The notes: generated from the sequence alone by a model not told the origin. DNA of 64,000 nt from an uncultured Bacilli bacterium (GCA_910588025.1 CAJUQG010000002.1:18478-82477), one strand, 5' to 3'; shown: positions 5,303 to 26,738, numbered from the stretch's first letter. A program made the numbers and translations.

Positions 5303-7090
5303 TTAGACACATGGATGTGGACAATCATTACAGTTATATAATTCTTTTTTTCTAATCAATTTTAAACTTTTACCTTGATTTAGTATAATTGGCTTTTCTT
5401 CTCCTACTTCTAATTGTACTTTCATTTCACTGTTACTCATCGTTTGTAAGTGATTTCGAACTAATTCCCAACCGTTTCTAGTCATGATATGAACAGGAAT
5501 TTTTACTCCTACTTGAGCTATGGCATTTGGTTTAATATATTCTTTCACATATTTAGAAGCGCACGACCATACGATATCTGCATTCTCTAACATAGTCTTA
5601 GCTGTTTTTTCATCTATTCCTGTTGAACATAAAGCAAATTTATAAATTGTTATACCTTCTTTTTCCAACTCTTTTAGTTGATTTAAAAGTTTATTATCTT
5701 GAGCTGCAAACGTAACGGCTATTTTTTTGTATCCTTTTTCTATGGCTTGTTTTACACCTGTTATTTGGTCAATATTTGCTGAATATGGAAAGACAGGAAT
5801 AATTTTAGATTCTCTTGCTTCATTCATTATATTTTCTGATGGACTAGTATAAAATAATCCAGTCATTCTTTTAACCGCCCCTTGGGTGTTCGTATTATTT
5901 GTCGTAATAATAGTTCCTAAATTATTGGAAACTATTACAGCTGCATCCAACATATCATTTTTAAATGCCGAAGCTATTGTTTCACTAGCACCAAATAAAA
6001 CATTTGCTTCACAAGAATTAAGGGGACGAGATGTATCAAAGTATCCGCCTTTTATAACAATGTTATTTATTAAATTACACATCATTTTTGTTTGTGTTTC
6101 AGTATTTTCTTTTCTAATTGCTTCAATAAATTTTTCACTTTCACTTCCTCCAACTTCATATAGAAGTTTAATCATTAATGGACAATATTTAATTGGGACA
6201 GGTGTGGCTTTAACGGCCTGTAACTCATCATTTATTTTTTGTAGAATTACATAGCTACCAAACATTCTGGTAATGTGCATTTCTTTCATAGCATAAAAAT
6301 CTCTCAATACACGATTTATATTTTTAGCTACTTGATCATCATTCCAATTATTCCAATCATCCATATACATTGTTAATTTGTCATTAGTAATGGTTATATC
6401 TAATATTTGAGTGTTAAAATGTAAGCCCCAACTAAACTTTTCATTATTAAATCTATTTAAAAAGTATTCTATTAAACCTTTTTGTTGAAAGTGATTATAA
6501 TAATCTATACTTTGTTCATCCATATCAAAATATTTTTCAACATGAGGATTTTTTAAAGGCACAGTATACTTATATACTCTTCCCATTTCTGAATAATAGT
6601 ATTTTAACTCTCCTTCTAATAATTGCATGTCTTCATCATTTGTCTTATATAAAGGTATTTCTTGCTTACCTATTTTTAACGTTTTGGCAATCTTTTCGGT
6701 ATTTTTATAATAATCTAATACTTTAGTTTTTAACATATCTTTATATTTTAGACAATTATTATCATCTTGTAAATTATAGAACATATAATCTCTTCTAGAC
6801 TTAATAATGGCACTTTTATAATCACAGCCCATCAAATAATAATAATTTATTCCTATTCCATCTCTGCTTTCATACGATGGGAGCATCACACGAAATGATG
6901 CGTCGCCATTCTTAATTTCCTGATCATCAAATCCTAATAATTGATAAACTTCTATTGCTTTTGTTCCAAAACCAAATTGATTAAAATCAATAAGCATTGC
7001 TTCACTTTCTTTATTCGTAAAACTTCCATCTTCTTTTACATAGCCCTTTTTAGTTTCTAAAATATATTTAAGTCCACTGTGACTTGCCAT
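5303..7090 (-). CDS. uncharacterised two-domain protein (595 aa). The C-terminal ~250 aa have a Rossmann-like beta-alpha pattern and a terminal Cys cluster CNDCPHPCV.
   Basis: Long uninterrupted ORF with a GAAAGAAGG RBS 8 nt upstream. It is transcribed divergently from a LysR regulator. I cannot place it in a known family. Confidence 0.6.
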   Translation of the reverse strand: MASHSGLKYILETKKGYVKEDGSFTNKESEAMLIDFNQFGFGTKAIEVYQLLGFDDQEIKNGDASFRVMLPSYESRDGIGINYYYLMGCDYKSAIIKSRRDYMFYNLQDDNNCLKYKDMLKTKVLDYYKNTEKIAKTLKIGKQEIPLYKTNDEDMQLLEGELKYYYSEMGRVYKYTVPLKNPHVEKYFDMDEQSIDYYNHFQQKGLIEYFLNRFNNEKFSWGLHFNTQILDITITNDKLTMYMDDWNNWNDDQVAKNINRVLRDFYAMKEMHITRMFGSYVILQKINDELQAVKATPVPIKYCPLMIKLLYEVGGSESEKFIEAIRKENTETQTKMMCNLINNIVIKGGYFDTSRPLNSCEANVLFGASETIASAFKNDMLDAAVIVSNNLGTIITTNNTNTQGAVKRMTGLFYTSPSENIMNEARESKIIPVFPYSANIDQITGVKQAIEKGYKKIAVTFAAQDNKLLNQLKELEKEGITIYKFALCSTGIDEKTAKTMLENADIVWSCASKYVKEYIKPNAIAQVGVKIPVHIMTRNGWELVRNHLQTMSNSEMKVQLEVGEEKPIILNQGKSLKLIRKKELYNCNDCPHPCV

Positions 7091-7209: not shown

Positions 7210-8109
7210 ATGAATATTAATTATGAATCTTATAAAATTTTTTATTTTGTAGCAATGGAAGGAAACATGTCAAAAGCTGCCAATCATTTACTTATTTCAC
7301 AACCGGCTGTTACCTGGCAGATAAAATCACTTGAAGAGCAATTAAACATAACGTTATTCACTCGTACTAAAAAAGGCGTCTCTTTAACTGAAGAAGGAAA
7401 ATTGTTATTTGAATATGTAAAACAAGGAGTGGAGTGTTTTACTAATGGTGAAAATATGTTAACAAATATAAAAAACTTAGATTATGGCATTATATCAATT
7501 GGCGCGAGTACTACTGTTAGTAAGCATGTTTTAATGCCTTATCTAGAAGTGTTTCATGAGAAATATCCCAATATTGAGATAAAAATAGTGAATGCTCTTA
7601 CAGAAAATCTCATTAAAGATCTTAAAAAAGGTAATTTGGATATGCTTGTACTTAATTTACCTATGAATGAAACAAAAGATTTAAAAATTCAAAAGGTTTT
7701 GAATGTACAAGATATTTTTGTTGGAAACAAAAGATATTACGAATTAACGAAAGGTAATATTACCTTAGAGAAATTAAATAATTATCCTTTACTTTTTCAA
7801 AAGCGCCCTTCTAATACTAGAACTTTTTTGGACAATTATTTACACAAAAATAATACCGTCTTAATACCTAAAACAGAAATAGTTAGTTATAATTTAATAA
7901 TGGATTTTGTAAAAAGTGGATTTGGAATAGGATACGCTACCAAAGAATTTATTAAAGATGATTTAAATAAGTCTTTATTTGAAATAAAAGTTACACCTAA
8001 AATTCCAGCAAGATATATTGGAATCGCAACACTTAATAAAACTATACCTAATTATAGTGTCAAAAAATTAATTCATCTTATGATAAATGATAAAAATATT
8101 AATCATTAA
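7210..8109 (+). CDS. LysR-family transcriptional regulator
   Basis: N-terminal HTH YKIFYFVAMEGNMSKAANHLLISQPAVTWQIKSLEEQLNITLFTRTKKGVSLT, which is the LTTR signature. 299 aa with a C-terminal substrate-binding domain. An AAGGAG RBS is present. Confidence 0.85.
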   Translation: MNINYESYKIFYFVAMEGNMSKAANHLLISQPAVTWQIKSLEEQLNITLFTRTKKGVSLTEEGKLLFEYVKQGVECFTNGENMLTNIKNLDYGIISIGASTTVSKHVLMPYLEVFHEKYPNIEIKIVNALTENLIKDLKKGNLDMLVLNLPMNETKDLKIQKVLNVQDIFVGNKRYYELTKGNITLEKLNNYPLLFQKRPSNTRTFLDNYLHKNNTVLIPKTEIVSYNLIMDFVKSGFGIGYATKEFIKDDLNKSLFEIKVTPKIPARYIGIATLNKTIPNYSVKKLIHLMINDKNINH

Positions 8110-8145
8110 AAGAATAAACTTATCTATCTGATTACAAATATTATA

Positions 8146-8455
8146 ATAATTCTAAATATTTCCTTAACATCTCTATTTCAAGCCTTGTTATTAAGTTAAT
8201 AAAATCTGTGTAATCACCAATTGTATGTGCTTTATCTACTGCTTCGTAATATTTTAGTCTATCCTCTTTTTTTATTATTACTGGATTATATCCATGATTC
8301 ATTAAATCTAAATTCATAAGTAGCCTTGAGGTCCTACCGTTACCATCAACAAAGGAAGAATTTTAACCAATTCTCCACATAATAAGGCTTCATGAAATTC
8401 TGGAACTTTTAAATAATTAGTAGGAATATGAGTTGCACCTTTAATCATTTTATTT
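8146..8455 (-). pseudogene. Fic-family protein gene remnant (3' two-thirds, with internal deletions)
   Basis: About 85% nucleotide identity to 10440..10800, the 3' part of the intact Fic gene at 10431..11360, but with gaps and frame breaks. No intact ORF. Confidence 0.7.
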
Positions 8456-8467
8456 ATAATATTTAAT

Positions 8468-8530
8468 TTATTTGTTTATATTTCGCCATTTCATTTTTGA
8501 TTACTTTTACTAAAAAAGAATGTTAACACT
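8468..8530. repeat. ~50-bp direct repeat, copy 1 (second copy at 12680..12760)
   Basis: TTCATTTTTGATTACTTTTACTAAAAAAGAATGTTAACACTC matches TTCATTTTTTGATTAGTTTTTACTAAAACAAAAAGGAATGTTAACA... upstream of the integrase gene. Confidence 0.7.
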
Positions 8531-8537
8531 CTCTATT

Positions 8538-9425
8538 TTAATCAATTAATAATTCTTTTTCTTCATTAACTTGTTTTTGTAATAATTCTAATTCTTTGAT
8601 ATTCTTATTGTCTTTTAGTACTTTCATTTGTCTTCTTGCGGAATTATTAAGTCTTACTAATCTCTCACTTTGAGGTACTTTTTCTTCAATCAATTCAGCA
8701 TTCGTATTTTGAAGATTATTTAAAATTACTAAATGTAGTAAATCAGTATAATCTCTCATGTTACCTTCTTTTGCCAATTCTGGATTATTATCTCTCCATT
8801 CTTTAGCTGTCATACCAAATAATGCAACATTTAAAACATCTGCTTCTTCAGCATATACAAATTTCTTTTGAGCTTCAGTAAGAGTTGGAACTATATAAGT
8901 TTTTACTGCATCAGTATGAACTACATAATTTAATTTAGATAATAGTCTATTTGCTTGCCAATCAATTTTCTCCTGATATGCTTCATTACTTTTTAATCGT
9001 TCAAATTCTTTTATTAAATATAGCTTAAATTCAGGGCTTAACCAACTAGCAAATTCAAACGCAATATCTGGATGAGCAAAAGTTCCTTTACTATATTTTC
9101 CGCTACTTGGAATTATTCCAATAGCATTAAAATCCTTTTTCCAACGATTAGGTGTCATCGTAAAACGATTATATGGAGCCTCATCAATTTTAATTCTGTG
9201 AAATTCCACGGAATTAAAATCTTCATTATTAATTTCTTCCCATAAACTATAATAATCAAATGAATTTTTATTTGACATCCAATTTCTAATTACACCAGAT
9301 GGATCTTCAGAATTTGCTTGTCTAGCTAAATCAGTTAATGAAATATAATTTACATTACCTACTCTTAAAATTCCTACTTTATTTTCTTTTACTATTATCT
9401 CTGTAGTTACTATATCTTTTTTCAT
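8538..9425 (-). CDS. KilA-N domain protein (phage/mobile-element DNA-binding protein)
   Basis: The N-terminus ...NYISLTDLARQANSEDPSGVIRNWMSNKNSFDYYSLWEEINN is a typical KilA-N domain; the C-terminal half is coiled-coil-like. It lies inside the mobile-element remnant. Confidence 0.7.
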   Translation of the reverse strand: MKKDIVTTEIIVKENKVGILRVGNVNYISLTDLARQANSEDPSGVIRNWMSNKNSFDYYSLWEEINNEDFNSVEFHRIKIDEAPYNRFTMTPNRWKKDFNAIGIIPSSGKYSKGTFAHPDIAFEFASWLSPEFKLYLIKEFERLKSNEAYQEKIDWQANRLLSKLNYVVHTDAVKTYIVPTLTEAQKKFVYAEEADVLNVALFGMTAKEWRDNNPELAKEGNMRDYTDLLHLVILNNLQNTNAELIEEKVPQSERLVRLNNSARRQMKVLKDNKNIKELELLQKQVNEEKELLID

Positions 9426-9586
9426 TACATCACCTCACTTTTTTTAATTTTAAAAGGATGTTCACATACCATTGTTGTTTACATCCTTTATTTTTAGGGC
9501 ATTTAAGCCAAATTTTTAATTATTTACAAACAAATATGAATTTGTTAACATTTTTTAAATTTGCAAAATCCTAGCAGCCCATTTAT

Positions 9587-9636
9587 TTATCTCACTTTCC
9601 GCAGCAATTTTTGTACTTTTTGCCCGAACCACATGT
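9587..9636. repeat. imperfect direct copy of the secA 3' terminus (attachment-site repeat)
   Basis: TTATCTCACTTTCCGCAGCAATTTTTGTACTTTTTGCCCGAACCACATGT is about 38/50 identical to the true secA end at 12811..12860. On the minus strand it still encodes ...TCGSGKKYKNCCGK*, the SecA C-terminal zinc-finger tail, with synonymous changes. Confidence 0.75.
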
Positions 9637-9867
9637 TCTATCAAATTCAGTATTTATAGCACTTATGGTATTACTGGAATTATTGGTATTTTAGGGAAAA
9701 AGTGGTTCCGAAGTATCAGATATTTATGGTATTTATAGTACTATGATTACTATAAATATTTCATCCAATGGGAACAAAATGGGAACATTGTGCTCATTCG
9801 TTCACTAAATCCACTTAAATTATAAACTAAATAATAGATTCAATCAATAACAATGACAAATTGTGCT

Positions 9868-10429
9868 CTAAAAACGCCTTGATAATACACCAACAGTTCT
9901 TAATAAATCGCTTGAATTTTCATATGCATACTTTCGAACATCAAACACTATTTTTGTAAATAAACTATTAATCATTTTTACAAGTTTGATAAATGAACCA
10001 GCATATAGAGTTATCTCTTCATCATCGACTTTAAATGTATAGTCAAATAGAGATAAACTCCCACTTCCAGATGATTTTATTCTAACTCCATGCATCTTAT
10101 GTTGGTATTTATTTCTTACTTTTCTTATCTTTTCTAAAAAATCATAATTTTCTTTTAAAATTTCATTATAATCATTGCTTAAGTATTTTATCTGTTCATT
10201 GTATTCTAATAAACCATCACTGTTTTTAAATTCCAATTGTTTGGTTTTTTTGTTATATGAATATGGAATCAATCTGGGAATATTTTGAATAATTTCTAGT
10301 ATAAATTCTTCACCATTTTCAAAATCATCTATTACATCAATTCCACATAATTTTATTAATTTAATTTAAATGGTATAAAGTTTCAAAGTACCCAAAAAGT
10401 GCATTTGCTATTTCAACATTCATATGCAT
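9868..10429 (-). pseudogene. hypothetical protein with an Rx4H (HEPN-like) motif, interrupted by a +1 frame break; translationally coupled to the Fic gene
   Basis: A short frame MHMNVEIANALFGYFETLYHLN* starts at 10427-10429, 1 nt after the Fic stop. It is out of frame by +1 with the 134-aa ORF 9868..10272, which itself stays open upstream to about 10400 (IKLIKLCGIDVIDDFENGEEF...). The downstream part contains EKIRKVRNKYQHKMHG, which matches R-x4-H. Confidence 0.4.
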
Positions 10430-10430
10430 T

Positions 10431-11360
10431 TTACCTCAACAATTCTAAATATTTCTTTAATGTTTCTATTTCCAGTTTAACTATTAATTTAACAAAATCT
10501 GTATAATCACCAGTTGTATGAGCTTTATCTAATGCTTCATAATATTCTAATCTATCTTCCTTTTTTATTATTACTGGATTAAACCCATAATTCATTAAAT
10601 CTAAATTCATAAGTAACCTTGCAGTTCTACCATTACCATCTACAAATGGATGAATTTTAACTAATTCACCATGTAATAAAGCAGCTTGAATAATTGGATG
10701 AAAATCATTCCAATTTTCGTAATTTAAAACTAACTTTTCCATTAACTCTGGAACTTTCAAGTAATCTGGTGGGATATGAGTTGCACCTTTTATAGTAACA
10801 TTTTCTCTTCTATATCTTCCTGCATTTTCATCACCAATATCTTTTAAAACTAATTGATGAATACCTTTGATATTCCACTCAGTAATCGGGTTATCTTCTT
10901 TTACCAAATCGTTTAAATATAAAATAGCCTTTTCATGATTGATAGCTTCTAAATGCTCTTTTATTGATTTTCCACCAACTGTAATTCCTTCTAATACAAC
11001 TTGTGTTTCTCTAAGTGTCAAAGTATTTCCTTCTATACCATTACTATTGTATGTCCATTCAAGATTAATTGAATCTTCTAATGATCTTAATGTTTCTTTT
11101 GGTATCGGTCTTTTATTATCTAATTCTCTCTTCAACTCATCAACTTCATTAAAATAATTAGCCTCTAAATCAATAATAAATTCTGTAAAATCTGGTTTAA
11201 TAACTCTTTTGTCTACTGGTTTTATTGCATCAACTGGAATATTCCAACTGTTTCCGTTTTTAACAGCTCCTTCAATCCTGCCATCTTGTAATAATTGCCT
11301 TATTCTTCTTTCACTAATATTCCATTTTTTTACAGCTTCTTTAGTAGTCATAAAATCCAA
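10431..11360 (-). CDS. Fic-family protein (class II: N-terminal HTH plus SxxxEG inhibitory motif plus Fic core)
   Basis: Fic motif HPFVDGNGRTARLL. The inhibitory-helix motif is TYNSNGIEGNTLT. The N-terminal ~55 aa look like an excisionase-type HTH (MDFMTTKEAVKKWNISERRIRQLLQDGRIEGAV). Confidence 0.85.
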   Translation of the reverse strand: MDFMTTKEAVKKWNISERRIRQLLQDGRIEGAVKNGNSWNIPVDAIKPVDKRVIKPDFTEFIIDLEANYFNEVDELKRELDNKRPIPKETLRSLEDSINLEWTYNSNGIEGNTLTLRETQVVLEGITVGGKSIKEHLEAINHEKAILYLNDLVKEDNPITEWNIKGIHQLVLKDIGDENAGRYRRENVTIKGATHIPPDYLKVPELMEKLVLNYENWNDFHPIIQAALLHGELVKIHPFVDGNGRTARLLMNLDLMNYGFNPVIIKKEDRLEYYEALDKAHTTGDYTDFVKLIVKLEIETLKKYLELLR

Positions 11361-11426
11361 AACGCTTCACCTCTATATATCATTATACCGCTAACGGTAG
11401 TTTTGGTCAACCATATAAGACTAATT

Positions 11427-12631
11427 TTATCTATATTTAATAATTTCATCTATAATATCTGATTTAACTGTTTGTTCAAATTTTTCACTTGCTTCTTTAA
11501 GTGTTTCATCAGTTGTTGATATATAATAATTTTCAGTAGCTTCTATCTTGCTATGCCCTAAAATGTCAGCTACATCTCTAATTTCTACACCATTTCTTAG
11601 ACTCTTTGTTGCATAACTTCCTCGTAAGTCATAGAATCTGCAATGTTCTATTCCCAATTCTGTATGAACCACTTTATATGGATATTTCATAATATCAGTT
11701 CCACTATAAACACCATTTTCTTTTCTAAATACTAAATCAAGATTTTCCAACAATTTAGCTTTTCTAACTGTTTCAACAATTCTATATTCTATTATTTTTC
11801 CATATTTATTTTTAACTTCTTCTAGATGATAATAGTGATACATTTTACCATATAACTTTTTAAAATTTTCTTGTTTCCTTTTATAATTTTTTAGAGCTAC
11901 TAATAAAGTATTACAAATATATACTTTTCTTACTCCATTTATTGTTTTTGTTGTACCTAAAAACCATTTCCCCTTTTCATCTTTAACTTTACTATAAACA
12001 TTATGCTCTATACTAATTATTCTCTTTTCAAGATCAATATTATCCCAAGTTAGTGCACAGACTTCACCGGTTCTCATTCCTGTAAAACATGCAACTAGAA
12101 ATGCACAGGTGAATGTTTCATTATTTTTAAATCTCTTTAAAATAAAATTCAATTTCTTCTTGAGTATAAATATGCCTTATAGTCTTTCTTTAATTGTTCT
12201 ATGTGCGGCAAACTTATAGTTATTGCTGGATTATAATTAATAAATCCAAATATATCAGTTGCAACTCTAAATGAACATTTTATTACTTTTACAAAATTTT
12301 TTAAATATCCATAAGAATAATCATATCTTCTACATACATCTATTAAATATTTATTTAACTGATAACTTGTAATTGCATTAAGTCTATAATGACCTAAATA
12401 AATCTTTAAATACTTATTAACAATAACTGAATACTCTTCTATTGTTCTATATTTTAAATTCACTTTGCAATAATTATCTAGCCAATAATCCAAATAATCT
12501 CCATATGACATATAGCTTTCCGTTTTACATCCTCCATTTTGATATTCATCATAAGCTTTTTGTCCTGCGGTAAATGCAGCATTTTTTGTTTTAAATCCAC
12601 TTTCTTTTTCCATTAACTTTTGTTGCTTCAA
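11427..12631 (-). pseudogene. tyrosine site-specific integrase, split by a frameshift into an N-terminal part (12149..12631) and a catalytic part (11427..12152)
   Basis: The catalytic domain has R (FTGMRTGEV), H-x-x-R (HCRFYDLRGSYAT) and the Tyr region (LGHSKIEATENYYI). The N-terminal ORF is a SAM-like core-binding domain. The two frames overlap at an AAGAAGAAA tract near 12149-12165. Confidence 0.7.
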
Positions 12632-12679
12632 AGCGATATTGATACACCTTTCCTCTTTTTTGAATACTAATCATTTTTA

Positions 12680-12760
12680 TCATCTCCCTTTCATTTTTTG
12701 ATTAGTTTTTACTAAAACAAAAAGGAATGTTAACATTTTATCTATGTTAACACTCCTTTG
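12680..12760. repeat. ~50-bp direct repeat, copy 2 (with an internal GTTAACA duplication), between the integrase start and the secA stop
   Basis: Matches 8468..8530 and contains ATGTTAACATTTTATCTATGTTAACAC. Confidence 0.7.
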
Positions 12761-12812
12761 TTTATAAGTATTTTAGCTATTTATTTTTTAATTTTAGCTA
12801 AACTTTTTTATG

Positions 12813-15299
12813 CTACTTTCCACAACAATTCTTATATTTCTTTCCTGAACCACATGGACAAGTATCATTTCTTCCTATTTTCTTATCATTTTTGACAGTA
12901 TGACCAACTTTTTCTTTTCCATCGTTGGAAGAACCTTTTATTACTTGTTTTCTTTCAATATTTTGTTCAATTTCGGCTTTTAATAAGAATTGTGCTACAT
13001 CGCTATCTATTTTATCTAATAGACGTTCAAATAGTTCGTAACCTTCCATGGTATATGCTTGAAGGGGATTGGTTTGACCATATCCTCTTAACATAATTCC
13101 GTCTTTTAAATGTTCCATTTCATTTAGGTGATTTACCCATAAAGAATCAATTACACGTAATGTAATGGCTTTCTCAAATTCTTCGAAAGCTGGAGCATCT
13201 TTAATTTTCTCTTCATAATCATCGTTAATTTTATTAAATAATAAATCAATAATTTCTTCTTCGCTCTTATCTTTTAATTCTTCTACAGATAGTTTTTCAC
13301 CTTTGATAAAATTAGAATTTACATATTCGATAATTTCTTGTTTATCATTATCTGTTAAATATCCTTCTGGAGCTATATGACTTTCAATTATATTGGTAAT
13401 CGTATTTTTGAAGGTATCTTTTATATTTTCATGAATACTTTCTAGTTCTAATACTTCATTTCTTTTTTCATAAATAATTAAGCGTTGTTCATTTACTACA
13501 TTGTCATAGTCTAATAAACTTTTACGCATATCGAAGTTATTTCCTTCAACTTTCTTTTGGGCTGATTCAATACTTCTAGTTAATGATTTGGAACGAATTG
13601 CTTGACTTCCTACCATTCCTAAAGCTTCAACCATTCTTTTTACTTTATCTGTTCCAAAACGGCGCATTAATTCATCTTCAAAAGATACAAAGAATTGACT
13701 CATTCCTGGATCACCTTGACGTCCAGCACGTCCACGTAATTGGTTATCAATACGACGAGATTCATGACGCTCTGTACCAATAACACAAAGTCCACCAAGT
13801 TCTTTTACACCTTCTCCAAGTTTAATATCTGTTCCACGACCTGCCATATTGGTAGCAATTGTAATTGCTCCCTTTTCTCCCGCTTTCGCAATGATTTCAG
13901 CTTCACGAGCATGATTTTTAGCATTTAATATTTCATGTTTTAATTTAGCTTTTGTAAGTAATGAACCTAAATATTCGTTTGCTTCTACAGAGATTGTACC
14001 CACTAAGATTGGTTGTCCAGTTTCATGAATTTCTTTAATTGTATTTACAATTGCTTCATATTTACCAGCCATATTAGAATATAATAAATCGGCACGGTCT
14101 TCACGAATTACTGGCTTGTTCGTTGGAATTTGAATAACATACATGTTGTAAATATTTCTAAATTCTTCTTCTTCTGTTTTTGCAGTACCTGTCATACCAG
14201 ATAATTTTTTATACATTCTAAATAAGTTTTGGAATGTAATCGTTGCCATTGTTCTAGTTTCTTCATTTATTTTAACATTTTCTTTGGCTTCTATTGCTTG
14301 ATGTAATCCTTCGCTAAATTGACGACCTTTCATTAAACGTCCAGTAAATTGATCTACAATAATTACTTCATTGTTATCTACAACATAATCTACATCTTTT
14401 TTAAAAGCATAATTTGCCTTTAGAGCTTGATTTACATGATGAACTAATGCTGAATTTTCTAAATCATATAAATTTTTGATATGAAAATATTGTTCAACTT
14501 TTGCAACACCTTTTTCCATTAAAGAGGTATTTTTAGTTTTTGGATCAAAATCATAATCTTCATTTTCAACTAAATTTTGAACAGCGGCATTTGCATCCAT
14601 ATATAAATCTTTTGTATTTGATTTACCTCCAGAAATAATTAAAGGAGTACGAGCTTCATCAATTAAAATTGAGTCAACTTCATCGACAATACAAAAGTTT
14701 AATGGTCTTTGAACACGGTCTGCTGCTTGAACTACCATATTATCTCTTAAATAGTCGAACCCTATTTCACTATTCGTAGAATATAAAATATCTGCATTGT
14801 ATGCTTCTTGTTTTTCTTTTGGACTCATTTCACGTAAATTTAAGCCTATTGTTAAGCCTAAAAATTCAAAAATGCTACCCATCCATTCAGAGTCACGTTT
14901 GGCAAGGAATTCGTTTACTGTTACGATATGAACACCTTCACCAGTTAAAGCATTTAAATAAGCTGGCATGGTTTCTGTTAAGGTTTTTCCTTCTCCAGTT
15001 TTCATTTCGGCAATATTACCATAATGAATGGCAAGTCCTCCTAAAATTTGGACAAAATAAGGCTTTTCTCCAATTACACGATAATCCGCTTCTCTTACTA
15101 CTGCATAAGCTTCGACTAAAATATCATCTAAAGTTTCTCCATTTGCTAATCTTTCTTTTAATTCGCTTGTTTTATTTTTTAGTTCTTCATCAGATAATTT
15201 GCTCATTGTTTCTTCTAAAGCAACTACTTCATTTGCTAAAACTTCGAATCTTTTTAATTCTTTATATTCTGAGTCGATTAATTTTCTAAATAATCCCAT
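12813..15299 (-). CDS. secA: preprotein translocase ATPase SecA
   Basis: 828 aa spanning the full SecA domain set, with the C-terminal zinc-binding tail CPCGSGKKYKNCCGK. Confidence 0.95.
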   Translation of the reverse strand: MGLFRKLIDSEYKELKRFEVLANEVVALEETMSKLSDEELKNKTSELKERLANGETLDDILVEAYAVVREADYRVIGEKPYFVQILGGLAIHYGNIAEMKTGEGKTLTETMPAYLNALTGEGVHIVTVNEFLAKRDSEWMGSIFEFLGLTIGLNLREMSPKEKQEAYNADILYSTNSEIGFDYLRDNMVVQAADRVQRPLNFCIVDEVDSILIDEARTPLIISGGKSNTKDLYMDANAAVQNLVENEDYDFDPKTKNTSLMEKGVAKVEQYFHIKNLYDLENSALVHHVNQALKANYAFKKDVDYVVDNNEVIIVDQFTGRLMKGRQFSEGLHQAIEAKENVKINEETRTMATITFQNLFRMYKKLSGMTGTAKTEEEEFRNIYNMYVIQIPTNKPVIREDRADLLYSNMAGKYEAIVNTIKEIHETGQPILVGTISVEANEYLGSLLTKAKLKHEILNAKNHAREAEIIAKAGEKGAITIATNMAGRGTDIKLGEGVKELGGLCVIGTERHESRRIDNQLRGRAGRQGDPGMSQFFVSFEDELMRRFGTDKVKRMVEALGMVGSQAIRSKSLTRSIESAQKKVEGNNFDMRKSLLDYDNVVNEQRLIIYEKRNEVLELESIHENIKDTFKNTITNIIESHIAPEGYLTDNDKQEIIEYVNSNFIKGEKLSVEELKDKSEEEIIDLLFNKINDDYEEKIKDAPAFEEFEKAITLRVIDSLWVNHLNEMEHLKDGIMLRGYGQTNPLQAYTMEGYELFERLLDKIDSDVAQFLLKAEIEQNIERKQVIKGSSNDGKEKVGHTVKNDKKIGRNDTCPCGSGKKYKNCCGK

Positions 15300-19157: not shown

Positions 19158-20426
19158 TTACTTTTTTTCAATAATTATTTCATTAAAAAATAAATCATTA
19201 ATAATTGAGGTTTTTATTTTTAATTTTTTTCTTCCAATTAGAGAAAATAGTCCTATTCCGTGTCCTGTTTTTTTCGTTGTATATTTTAATGTTCCTAAGG
19301 CATCAATATCTAGAACAGTTTGGAATGTATTAATAATTTTTATGTGATAAGATTCTTCAGTTTCTTTCATATCAATCATTAAAATTTTTTCTTTCGTTTT
19401 TTCAGTAGCTTCTAGAGCATTATCTAATAAGATACCTAAGGCTTCACACAAGAGGTTATAACTTTTTGGGGTTAATTCATCATATACATTAGAATTAATA
19501 TTGTTATCAATTCCAATCGATAATTCATTGTTTTCAAAACCATATATCTTTTCATAAACAATTCCACTAATTCCCATGGGCATCTTTTGCATATTTTGAA
19601 TGGTTTTCGTATTTTGATTATATTCTTGAATTAAATCATTAATTAATTCTTGGCCTTTTTCATTTGAAACACTTTTCACACCGTTTAATTGATGAATTAG
19701 ATTATGTTTTAGCATTCGATAGTCATTAATAATTGTTAAATAAAACTCGTTGTTTCTAATTATATTTTCGTTGGTGACTTTTAATTCGTAATTATTATAT
19801 TCACGATTTAAAAACATGATTAAGAAAATAGTAATCGAAAAAAATAATAAATATATTTCTAAAGATAAAGAATTTAAACCAAATTTTTGGATAAAATCAT
19901 ATATTGTGAATCCTAAAGAGATTAAAACAATCATAATCAGTAAAAAGGAAAGATAAGGAAACTTAATTTTTTTCATATTTTTGTGTAATTTCGCAGACCA
20001 CTTTTTGATATGATTAGAATTTAATGTAAATAAAAGGATTGTTTCAACTACAATAGTATCAATAAATCGAATTTCTGTAATGCCAAAGGAAAAGAATTTA
20101 AAAGGAATAAGCGTTGAAAAAATCATAACTAAAATATCAATTATCATTCCTATAATACTAATCGTAGCGCCATAAAATATAATATCAAATACATCTTTTC
20201 GATATAATAAGTAATAAAGAACAAAATAAAAAAATAAGGATGTTAAGGTATTTAAAGTCATTAATTTAAAATGATATTCAAGGGTCATTATTAAAGCAAA
20301 GGGAATGATTAATAAATAAGATAAATAATGTACTTTTTTATCATGATTTGTTATTAATTTAAACCCAGTTGATACAGATAATTGAACTATGCAAGCTAAA
20401 AGAAAATAGATCACAAGATTTAGCAT
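19158..20426 (-). CDS. AgrC-like (HPK10) membrane sensor histidine kinase
   Basis: The N-terminal ~200 aa are polytopic. The H-box region is YRMLKHNLIHQLNG. The C-terminal GHKL ATPase has ...TGHGIGLFSL. Confidence 0.8.
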   Translation of the reverse strand: MLNLVIYFLLACIVQLSVSTGFKLITNHDKKVHYLSYLLIIPFALIMTLEYHFKLMTLNTLTSLFFYFVLYYLLYRKDVFDIIFYGATISIIGMIIDILVMIFSTLIPFKFFSFGITEIRFIDTIVVETILLFTLNSNHIKKWSAKLHKNMKKIKFPYLSFLLIMIVLISLGFTIYDFIQKFGLNSLSLEIYLLFFSITIFLIMFLNREYNNYELKVTNENIIRNNEFYLTIINDYRMLKHNLIHQLNGVKSVSNEKGQELINDLIQEYNQNTKTIQNMQKMPMGISGIVYEKIYGFENNELSIGIDNNINSNVYDELTPKSYNLLCEALGILLDNALEATEKTKEKILMIDMKETEESYHIKIINTFQTVLDIDALGTLKYTTKKTGHGIGLFSLIGRKKLKIKTSIINDLFFNEIIIEKK

Positions 20427-26159: not shown

Positions 26160-26702
26160 ATTTTATCAAGAAAAAAGATTCTTTTTAAGAACCTTTTAAG
26201 CTACAATGGTTTTTGTTGTGGTAAATTATAAATTAATTTTACGGCTTAGGTCGAGTTGAATTTCTCTACTTTCTACCTTTGGTTACCCGAGGGCGATTTC
26301 TCTTTCAAGAAAGCAACTAAGTGTTACCAGCTTAATTACTCGATTACCACTGAGTCCGCACTTTAATCCTTATAATTATAACATTCTAGAGGTTTTCCCT
26401 GACACCCACTATCCAATACTTATTCGCTTTTGCAAATACGATTTTGATAATCATCTATTTGATCGGGAATAGACTTTATTCATTATCTCCCACGTATTCA
26501 CTCACGACATGCACTTTTTTTATTTCTTGCGGGATTTTAGGAGATTCATTATATGCCATTATAACTTTCCTAAAATCTTAAATTATATAACCACCCCAAC
26601 TTGGGCAGAAGAAGCGAATTATATAAAGTGCTTTTCATGCAATTGGTAGATTTTTAGCCCTACCTTCATATTGTGTGTGTGACTAGAATAATGCACCACA
26701 TG
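26160..26702 (-). ncRNA. large structured noncoding RNA candidate (~525 nt, about 40% GC versus about 27% in the flanks), possibly an OLE-type RNA
   Basis: No ORF longer than 26 codons on either strand. GC is locally elevated (for example GGTTACCCGAGGGCGATTTC, CCACTGAGTCCGCAC). A consensus sigma-A promoter lies at its 5' end and a terminator at its 3' end. It sits immediately upstream of a 4-TM DxxxD protein. Confidence 0.45.
26168..26197 (-). terminator. intrinsic terminator/attenuator at the 3' end of the large noncoding transcript, just upstream of the membrane-protein RBS
   Basis: Minus strand GGTTCTT-AAA-AAGAATC followed by TTTTTT: a 7-bp stem with one G·U pair. Confidence 0.55.
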
Positions 26703-26709
26703 ACAATGA

Positions 26710-26738
26710 ATTATACACTATTTTTACTTTTTTGTCAA
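26710..26738 (-). promoter_or_regulatory. consensus sigma-A promoter TTGACA-N17-TATAAT driving the large ncRNA/leader
   Basis: Minus strand: TTGACA aaaaagtaaaaatagtg TATAAT. The -35 hexamer is plus-strand 26733-26738 and the -10 hexamer is 26710-26715. Confidence 0.7.

Follow-up and report, generated by a model that had tools for sequence, protein, structure and literature searches.

The window analysed here, a stretch of 64,000 nucleotides from an uncultured Bacilli bacterium (G+C content 28.5%) numbered from its first letter, carries a secA gene on its minus strand whose last codons recur about 3.2 kb beyond its end. The original prediction held that an integrative island with a Fic gene had entered the 3' end of secA and rebuilt it, next to a decayed sister copy. 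Between the two secA tails lies the segment here called element A, with a broken tyrosine integrase gene adjoining secA, an intact Fic gene, a broken downstream gene (orfX) and an arm of short repeats; beyond the displaced tail lies a second, more degraded segment, region B, with a KilA-N gene and remnants of integrase and Fic genes. The features of secA and element A, in the direction of transcription, are as follows.

12813-15299, minus strand: secA, the target gene, 828 residues (open reading frame; Pfam SecA domains and SEC-C on an identical product)
12847-12855, minus strand: attL core, (A)TGTGGTTC, in the part of the SEC-C zinc finger that codes for Cys-Gly-Ser (attB, attL and attR compared)
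12813-12846, minus strand: element-borne replacement of the last secA codons and stop, with the amino acids of the native tail and 8 nucleotide differences in the span
12683-12759, minus strand: terminator-like hairpin after secA (12721-12759; inverted repeat with a 16-bp stem, then a T run) and integrase leader
11427-12674, minus strand: tyrosine integrase pseudogene with arm-binding, SAM-like and catalytic domains, split over three frames
11382-11410, minus strand: promoter-like site before Fic (TTGACC, 17-nucleotide spacer, TATAAT; 11 of 12 consensus positions, a consensus match only)
10431-11360, minus strand: intact Fic gene, 309 residues, with an N-terminal excisionase-type helix-turn-helix, HTH (Pfam Fic 5.8e-25, HTH_17 4.5e-5)
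9868-10428, minus strand: orfX pseudogene, candidate HEPN-like, 208 residues in its intact form, starting 2 nucleotides past the Fic stop
9636-9812, no strand: right arm of about 180 bp with short repeats (TATTTATRG copies, AATGGGAACA twice), probable integrase arm sites
9592-9634, minus strand: attR, made up of the core (9626-9634) and, after it, the native tail and stop of secA in displaced position; in empty-site strains the end of secA has nearly the same sequence

The duplicated secA tail and its junctions

The last 53 nucleotides of secA (12804-12856) align without gaps to 9583-9635 at 41 of 53 positions (local BLAST E-value 2.8e-8), with 3221 bp between the two tail copies; the recurrence first noted as about 38 of 50 positions (12811-12860 against 9587-9636) was therefore found, with coordinates a few bases off. 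On the minus strand both copies encode CGSGKKYKNCCGK and then a stop; the nucleotide differences between them are all synonymous, in agreement with the description of the displaced copy as a SecA zinc-finger tail. A degenerate 35-nucleotide pattern for CGSGKKYKNCCGK has 2 sites in the 64 kb, namely the two tails, and none in 100 shuffles.

Alleles with and without the segment were compared in ten contigs of independent assemblies, retrieved by exact SecA protein look-up. The integrase-Fic-orfX segment is absent from five of them (L001, L003, L006, L007, L008), all with the same 828-residue SecA, in which the gene order is secA, KilA-N, Fic fragments and LysR and whose flanks are 99-99.6% identical to those of the window. 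It is present in four further contigs, three of which (L002, L004, L005) are 100% identical to the window across the whole region, while the element of the fourth (L010) is 98.2% identical. Samples with the occupied allele include those behind GCA_948624705.1, SRR12474073 and JGI 3300038382. The expectation that related genomes would offer an empty site was borne out in that empty alleles exist in close strains, but secA is followed there by KilA-N and not directly by LysR. The empty allele is presumably the ancestral one. When occupied and empty secA genes are aligned, all 9 mismatches fall in the last 45 nucleotides, the other ~2440 being identical; the ninth difference, outside the replaced span, lies in the Pro codon directly before the core. 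The same arrangement is present in independent NCBI, JGI, ENA and Logan assemblies.

The unoccupied site and the two ends of the segment share a short core. The attB junction reads ..TGTCC T TGTGGTTC G GGAAAAAAGTAC.., the attL junction ..TGTCC A TGTGGTTC A GGAAAGAAATAT.. and the attR junction ..AGAAC A TGTGGTTC G GGCAAAAAGTAC.., and exchange therefore took place within the 8-9 bp (A)TGTGGTTC, inside which we infer the exact crossover point and the strand-exchange chemistry. The tail now joined to secA is element-derived, and the native tail is that at 9592-9625. The segment is thus bounded by an attL and an attR that share their core with an unoccupied attB in related strains, as a site-specific integrative element should be, and the predicted attP junction of element A is ...TTTGATAGAACATGTGGTTCAGGAAAGAAATAT.... 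Taken together, the empty sites, the junctions and the nine terminal differences in secA uphold the central claim of the original prediction, that an element entered the 3' end of secA and rebuilt the gene.

Very probably, then, element A is a site-specific integrative element in the end of secA, and region B an earlier related unit at the same site. Element A (~9634-12846, 3.2 kb) would have carried within its attachment site a copy of the last 13 secA codons, and its integrase would have carried out recombination between that copy and the end of the chromosomal secA, within (A)TGTGGTTC. After insertion, secA would end in element codons that specify the same amino acids, followed by a new stop and the element's terminator, and the native secA end would have been pushed 3.2 kb downstream as attR. 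The putative cargo would be a FICD-like class II Fic adenosine monophosphate (AMP) transferase with its own promoter-like site, plus orfX.

The integrase, the cargo and their relatives

The reading frames between the tails include the frameshifted, secA-proximal tyrosine integrase that had been predicted. Once repaired, the sequence matches PF00589 (3.1e-18) and PF14659, aligns over its full length with intact 423-residue relatives and retains all columns invariant across 12 family members (MRTGE, YDLRGS, LGH and the NYY tyrosine), its catalytic domain having the conserved Arg, His-x-x-Arg, His and Tyr of tyrosine recombinases. Relative to the intact copy in L027, the window gene carries indels of -14, -2 and +1 nucleotides, all three of which are common to the window and the diverged L010 copy; sequencing error as the source of the frameshifts is ruled out by the independent assemblies, which are 100% identical over the element. 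With a dead integrase, element A is therefore immobile unless a related integrase acts in trans.

Homologues of the repaired integrase number more than 1400, the best intact ones being 423 residues long, ~60% identical and equipped with an arm-binding domain, and a scan of one genome per GTDB species recovered 403 relatives, in uncultured gut Bacilli, Clostridia, 'Tenericutes' and Erysipelotrichaceae. In 59 of the 62 informative loci, defined by at least 450 nucleotides after the integrase, a SEC-C tail on the same strand lies downstream (in 48 of these at 251-427 nucleotides past the stop), and the opposite strand has no SEC-C motif in 1.09 Mb. Loci with enough flank have secA upstream (11 loci) or prfB downstream, and a single integrase, P0001, occurs attached to three different secA tails, in each case with prfB next. 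The 60 nucleotides before 57 distinct attR junctions contain phased ATAATAC / TAAATAC repeats, enriched 20-60 times over background, and TACTATA occurs in 49% of arms versus 0.8% of background windows. Repeats of the ATAATAC / TAAATAC type are also carried by the window's right arm, which is conserved at 88% in L027 and 97% in L024, and the arm-like short repeats originally placed at 9640-9800 were located at 9636-9812. In larger relatives an overlapping gene for an HTH_17 excisionase is present, with a sigma70_r4-type regulator upstream.

The usable target of this integrase family may be any DNA that encodes the SEC-C zinc-finger motif. At L013:5097-5756, the attR of integrase P0009 (identical in L011, L012 and L014) leads into the SEC-C motif at the N terminus of a 219-residue open reading frame and not into a secA tail. 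A second integrase, 40-45% identical, often stands directly after secA (L042, L061, L068, L088, L094, L099, L101), ~280 nucleotides past the secA stop and upstream of a unit ending in a 56-60% relative of the window integrase; no recognisable tail separates the second integrase from that unit.

In fifteen related integrase genes the reading frame breaks at a single poly-A tract that lies between the DNA-binding and catalytic halves; there are nine distinct junctions, in two branches ~50% identical to each other.

L100:10496, L112:2999, L024:7171, L092:16039, L107:6209, L108:1877 and 6209, L084:6349: poly-A splits (A7-A10)

The A8 form reads TTA AAA AAA (A_AAA_AAA); a stop comes 2-3 codons later, and the -1 frame is open into the catalytic domain; the predicted trans-frame peptide across it is ..QLKKKTIRHIYTQ... 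Of 64 distinct in-frame junctions, only those of L027 (A9) and L028 (A10) have runs longer than 7. Copies that carry the shift have a synonymous divergence (dS) of 0.4-1.2 and a ratio of nonsynonymous to synonymous divergence (dN/dS) of 0.05-0.36 in both halves, and the catalytic half is free of stops in 5 of 6 second-branch copies. Judged from these sequence comparisons, purifying selection on the split integrases suggests programmed -1 frameshifting, transcriptional slippage or phase variation, any of which would fit better than decay. A literature search for frameshifting in tyrosine recombinases returned nothing relevant, and we know of no description of frameshifting, slippage or phase variation gating a tyrosine integrase. 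The window integrase has lost its poly-A tract (~12185-12195) and has two more indels, and is therefore truly dead.

Fic is intact in all copies of the element. Class II Fic proteins combine HxFx(D/E)GNGRxxR with (S/T)xxxE(G/N) N-terminal to the active site in the same chain, and the Fic of element A has both, an active site HPFVDGNGRTAR at residues 237-248 and an inhibitory SNGIEG at residues 106-111, so that the class II gene said to lie between the tails is confirmed. Its nearest solved structure is FICD (6.5e-40, residues 51-302), in the alignment to which SNGIEGN stands opposite VAIEGN of the FICD chain. Like FICD/HYPE it has the active-site and inhibitory motifs; it departs from FICD/HYPE and SoFic in the excisionase-type HTH at its N terminus, which takes the place of TPR repeats or of a winged helix at the C terminus. 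The HTH match is below curated cut-offs. Fic matches PADLOC PDC-S04 at 1e-36, and its assignment as SoFic was rejected (NCBIfam score of 36 against a cut-off of 550 bits; PADLOC SoFic matched only over 41-270 of the 361 model positions). Proteins that match Fic run to thousands, the 120 best being 88-100% identical. Reading its HTH as the missing excisionase is unsupported, as a 91%-identical Fic stands alone elsewhere with no integrase nearby: this lone gene (L018-L023:8001-8927; residues 1-308 of 309 align) has a NAGPA-domain gene on one side and rpsO-pnp on the other, in further uncultured Bacilli.

The coupled gene said to follow Fic does start 2 nucleotides after the Fic stop, but it is also a frameshifted pseudogene, its lesions in the window being a 2-nucleotide deletion and a 69-nucleotide in-frame deletion. 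The orfX of L024 is broken by a different 1-nucleotide deletion, and intact homologues have 208 residues, with an R-N-K-Y-x-H motif conserved across the family. An HEPN domain is a four-helix bundle with a conserved R-x(4-6)-H motif. A confident predicted model of orfX has low-Z similarity to helical bundles, HEPN toxins among them, and the fold search returned generic helical bundles only; the modelled structure makes an HEPN fold suggestive and not established. Fic and orfX do not form an obligate pair, since orfX follows the integrase without Fic in L107-L111 and Fic occurs without orfX in L018-L023. Within element A only Fic is intact, and the integrase and orfX are dead. The cargo may act in phage defence or as toxin-antitoxin genes.

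Element A itself is found at 88-96% DNA identity behind the secA genes of L027 and L100 (SecA 66-67% identical) and of L024, whose secA 3' end is 84% identical to the window at the DNA level. L112 has it as a single insertion between secA and prfB, and L027 has an intact integrase, with a 1067-residue gene in place of orfX. The compact layout of integrase adjoining secA, cargo and then arm thus recurs across hosts, which argues for a mobile unit and not a one-off deletion product. Several genomes have stacks of such units: L024 has secA, integrase-Fic-orfX, tail, a 451-residue gene with integrase, AbiEi and AbiEii, and tail; L050 has xis-int, tail, GNAT, tail, KilA-N (86% identical) and tail; and at least three tails also occur in L028, L062, L088, L108 and L110. 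A gene stands between tail and integrase in the second unit of L024 (451-residue gene, integrase, AbiE) and in L107 (422-residue gene, integrase, orfX). The cargo of the family includes AbiEi/AbiEii (L024:12699-14142), a MazF-like toxin (L061:9136-9675) and RhuM with a fused PARIS-like AriAB (L011:11828-14875; 1e-129). PADLOC gave no match for 6 of ten further cargo proteins; the neighbouring cargo genes of 1067, 451, 422 and 415 residues had no PADLOC match, and the 422-residue product is a tRNA-synthetase-like protein.

Region B and the competing explanations

On the far side of the displaced tail, region B contains the following features.

8538-9425, minus strand: intact KilA-N gene (PF04383 3.8e-17; PADLOC PDC-S22 2e-109)
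8483-8541, minus strand: integrase leader remnant and half terminator, 59 nucleotides, matching 12683-12750
8440-8477, minus strand: probable integrase 3'-end remnant, 31 of 38 nucleotides shared with 11436-11473 (BLAST E-value 6.6e-6)
8141-8448, minus strand: C-terminal third of a Fic gene, dead, at 83-84% identity to the intact one

Each of the parts listed for this unit in the original prediction was recovered. The KilA-N gene left of the displaced tail is confirmed by its PF04383 match, and residues 8-281 of its product cover positions 5-275 of the 281 of PDC-S22, a full-length match to a PADLOC candidate for which we know of no experimental validation. The repeat of 50 bp described between 8468-8530 and 12680-12760 corresponds to the leader match of 8483-8541 with 12683-12750, which scores 30.5, where 1000 shuffles reached at most 26; the integrase 3'-end remnant, at 24 against a shuffle maximum of 23.5, is marginal alone and collinear with the other matches of region B. 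The Fic fragment, described as about 85% identical over 8146-8455, consists of two blocks, 8145-8396 against 10438-10690 at 84% and 8396-8445 against 10744-10793 at 82%, and deletions of 54 nucleotides and 1 nucleotide destroy its active-site motif.

Region B is collinear with element A and occurs in all sampled strains of the species, occupied or empty, and is therefore older than element A. Its original order (8141-9591) would have been KilA-N, integrase and Fic, subsequently shrunk by two internal deletions and a truncation. The presence of region B in empty strains, its collinearity and the stacks seen elsewhere speak for the tandem or successive insertion first proposed, but region B may be two remnants and not one.

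That region B consists of two adjacent remnants is possible, though we regard it as the less likely history. One remnant would be a KilA-N cassette with no integrase and with its distal tail gone, and the other a reduced integrase-Fic unit that lost its proximal tail, the body of the integrase and the 5' half of Fic. Such a history accords with L050, where the 86%-identical KilA-N stands alone between two tails and adjoins a tail-flanked GNAT cassette, and with the KilA-N stop of region B, which abuts the half terminator and leader that directly follow the tail in element A. However, there is no trace of a tail between KilA-N and the leader, and units ordered tail, gene, integrase that have no internal tail exist in L024 (unit 2) and L107; a single KilA-N, integrase and Fic unit is therefore plausible for region B.

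It is improbable that the 3.2-kb segment is itself ancestral and that homologous deletion between the tail repeats gave rise to the empty allele, with no part played by site-specific recombination. Every occupied strain sampled has a dead integrase, L010 sharing all three indels, and the longest perfect block in the 41-of-53 repeat is the core region, as such a deletion would allow. However, the change from attL-type to attR-type sequence coincides with the very core at which such elements end in dozens of further genomes, and the same element stands behind the secA genes of different hosts; moreover, homologous deletion would explain loss alone, and the element-type tail would still show arrival by integration. 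That 9587-9636 represents what is left of the end of some other SEC-C gene, or that the arrangement is an assembly chimera, is hardly conceivable, for although SEC-C occurs in other proteins and P0009 in L013 is joined to the SEC-C motif of the 219-residue frame, the very same sequence is the secA 3' end in empty-site strains, and the arrangement is identical in the NCBI, JGI, ENA and Logan assemblies.

Several observations weigh against element A as an integrative element that followed an earlier unit into the end of secA. Neither a circular form nor an attP junction was observed in the material surveyed, which consists of assembled contigs. The integrase is dead in the window, yet the allele is polymorphic within the species, a combination that needs an earlier active state, a trans-acting integrase or a swap of the entire region from strain to strain. 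Immediately left of the core, attL and attR both have A and the empty strains have T, which requires either that attB was polymorphic or that a heteroduplex was repaired. A separate excisionase, as carried by the larger relatives, is lacking in element A. The attL tail of the window and ~50 nucleotides beyond it differ from the closest relatives L024, L027 and L100, which keep an extra segment with inverted copies of the GGGAACA arm motif, and the left end of the window element has therefore been remodelled. Finally, a displaced tail at the far end of region B was not found in the window search, and a third, older secA tail is absent between prfB and the LysR gene and from the whole window with 3 mismatches allowed.

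Known systems and the meaning of the secA site

Element A is neither a prophage nor a satellite, as it has no virion, replication or packaging genes, and a phage origin was rejected from viral sequences, where integrase relatives are at most 39% identical in 2.9 million viral contigs and the only DNA match in phage records is 49 nucleotides of secA tail. A plasmid origin was likewise rejected, with only distant Fic genes matched (65-69%). An integrative and conjugative element (ICE) is excluded because there are no transfer genes (type IV secretion, coupling protein, relaxase), the 3.2 kb holding only integrase, Fic and orfX. Open reading frame and Pfam searches of element A gave no relaxase gene, a relaxase and/or an oriT being the mark of an integrative mobilisable element (IME). 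An integron was rejected because integron-integrase models score 64.6 against a cut-off of 265 bits and the repeats are mimics of coding sequence.

The closest parallels are partial. ICESt1 and ICESt3 of Streptococcus thermophilus, with their integrase-less cis-mobilizable element (CIME) derivatives, occupy the 3' end of fda and provide the example of site-specific accretion and cis-mobilisation. As in these elements, a tyrosine integrase acts at the 3' end of a conserved gene for which the element brings a substitute end, and tandem units, some of them integrase-less (L050 and region B of the window), are split by att sites. Unlike ICESt1 and ICESt3, the present units target the SEC-C tail of secA and measure 1.3-6 kb, and in element A, where no conjugation or mobilisation genes were seen, there is no separate excisionase and the cargo lies between integrase and right arm. 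Larger relatives using the same secA site exist, and by analogy with CIME elements, cis-mobilisation after accretion would be the most economical guess for transfer of the 3.2-kb unit. The integrases have the domain order of Tn916-type enzymes (Arm-DNA-bind_4, SAM-like, catalytic) and arm-type repeats beside the core, but Tn916 is loose in its choice of target, whereas the secA integrase family is bound tightly to one coding motif. Phages and satellites such as the staphylococcal islands at guaA or groEL also insert at the 3' ends of protein-coding genes, which they restore; like them, element A duplicates the gene end with synonymous differences and leaves the target gene intact, and unlike them it has no phage or satellite genes. 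The arrays resemble integrons in being strings of short cassettes at one chromosomal site, some without a recombinase, with recombination-site repeats between them, and differ in that most units have their own integrase, which is not of the IntI type, and that the site is a coding mimic and not a folded attC.

A full-text literature search, whose scope left most subscription journals outside, found no paper on secA as an attachment site. The description of secA as an uncommon target accordingly holds for the searched literature but not for this clade, in which it is a common one. As far as the searched literature goes, the secA target site and the integrase family are new, and the mechanism is classical.

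Other features of the window lie outside this system. Upstream of secA, an agr-like locus includes a histidine kinase gene (~19158-20426, minus strand) that is whole in the window strain, with 422 residues, and is split into 335 and 63 residues in several empty-site strains (L001:4874-6105). A full-length ornate large extremophilic (OLE) RNA at 26202-26715 (minus strand), here in a gut bacterium of low G+C, scores 242.7 bits against a gathering score of 50. The gene at 5303-7090 (minus strand) encodes a 595-residue protein with a C-terminal DUF2099, matching 'methanogenesis marker 8' at 177.9 bits, below the cut-off, and is paired with a divergent LysR regulator gene (7210-8109, plus strand), a pair that also adjoins the secA array in L027.

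Beyond this one genome, it is tentatively proposed that the secA end is an accretion platform in a large clade of uncultured gut Bacillota, with poly-A-gated integrases in at least two branches. On such a platform small units bounded by SEC-C tails, with or without an integrase, would pile up and exchange, many of them carrying defence genes. The attachment site falls where an essential gene, conserved universally, encodes its zinc finger, and the short secA tail repeat marks the exact edges of units in metagenome-assembled genomes of uncultured bacteria. Genes found beside known defence systems (the 1067-, 451- and 422-residue genes and orfX) are reasonable new defence candidates. For the window genome itself the insertion is an ordinary, decaying element that has retained its Fic gene; across uncultured gut bacteria, the secA end is a widespread stacking point for defence-type genes.

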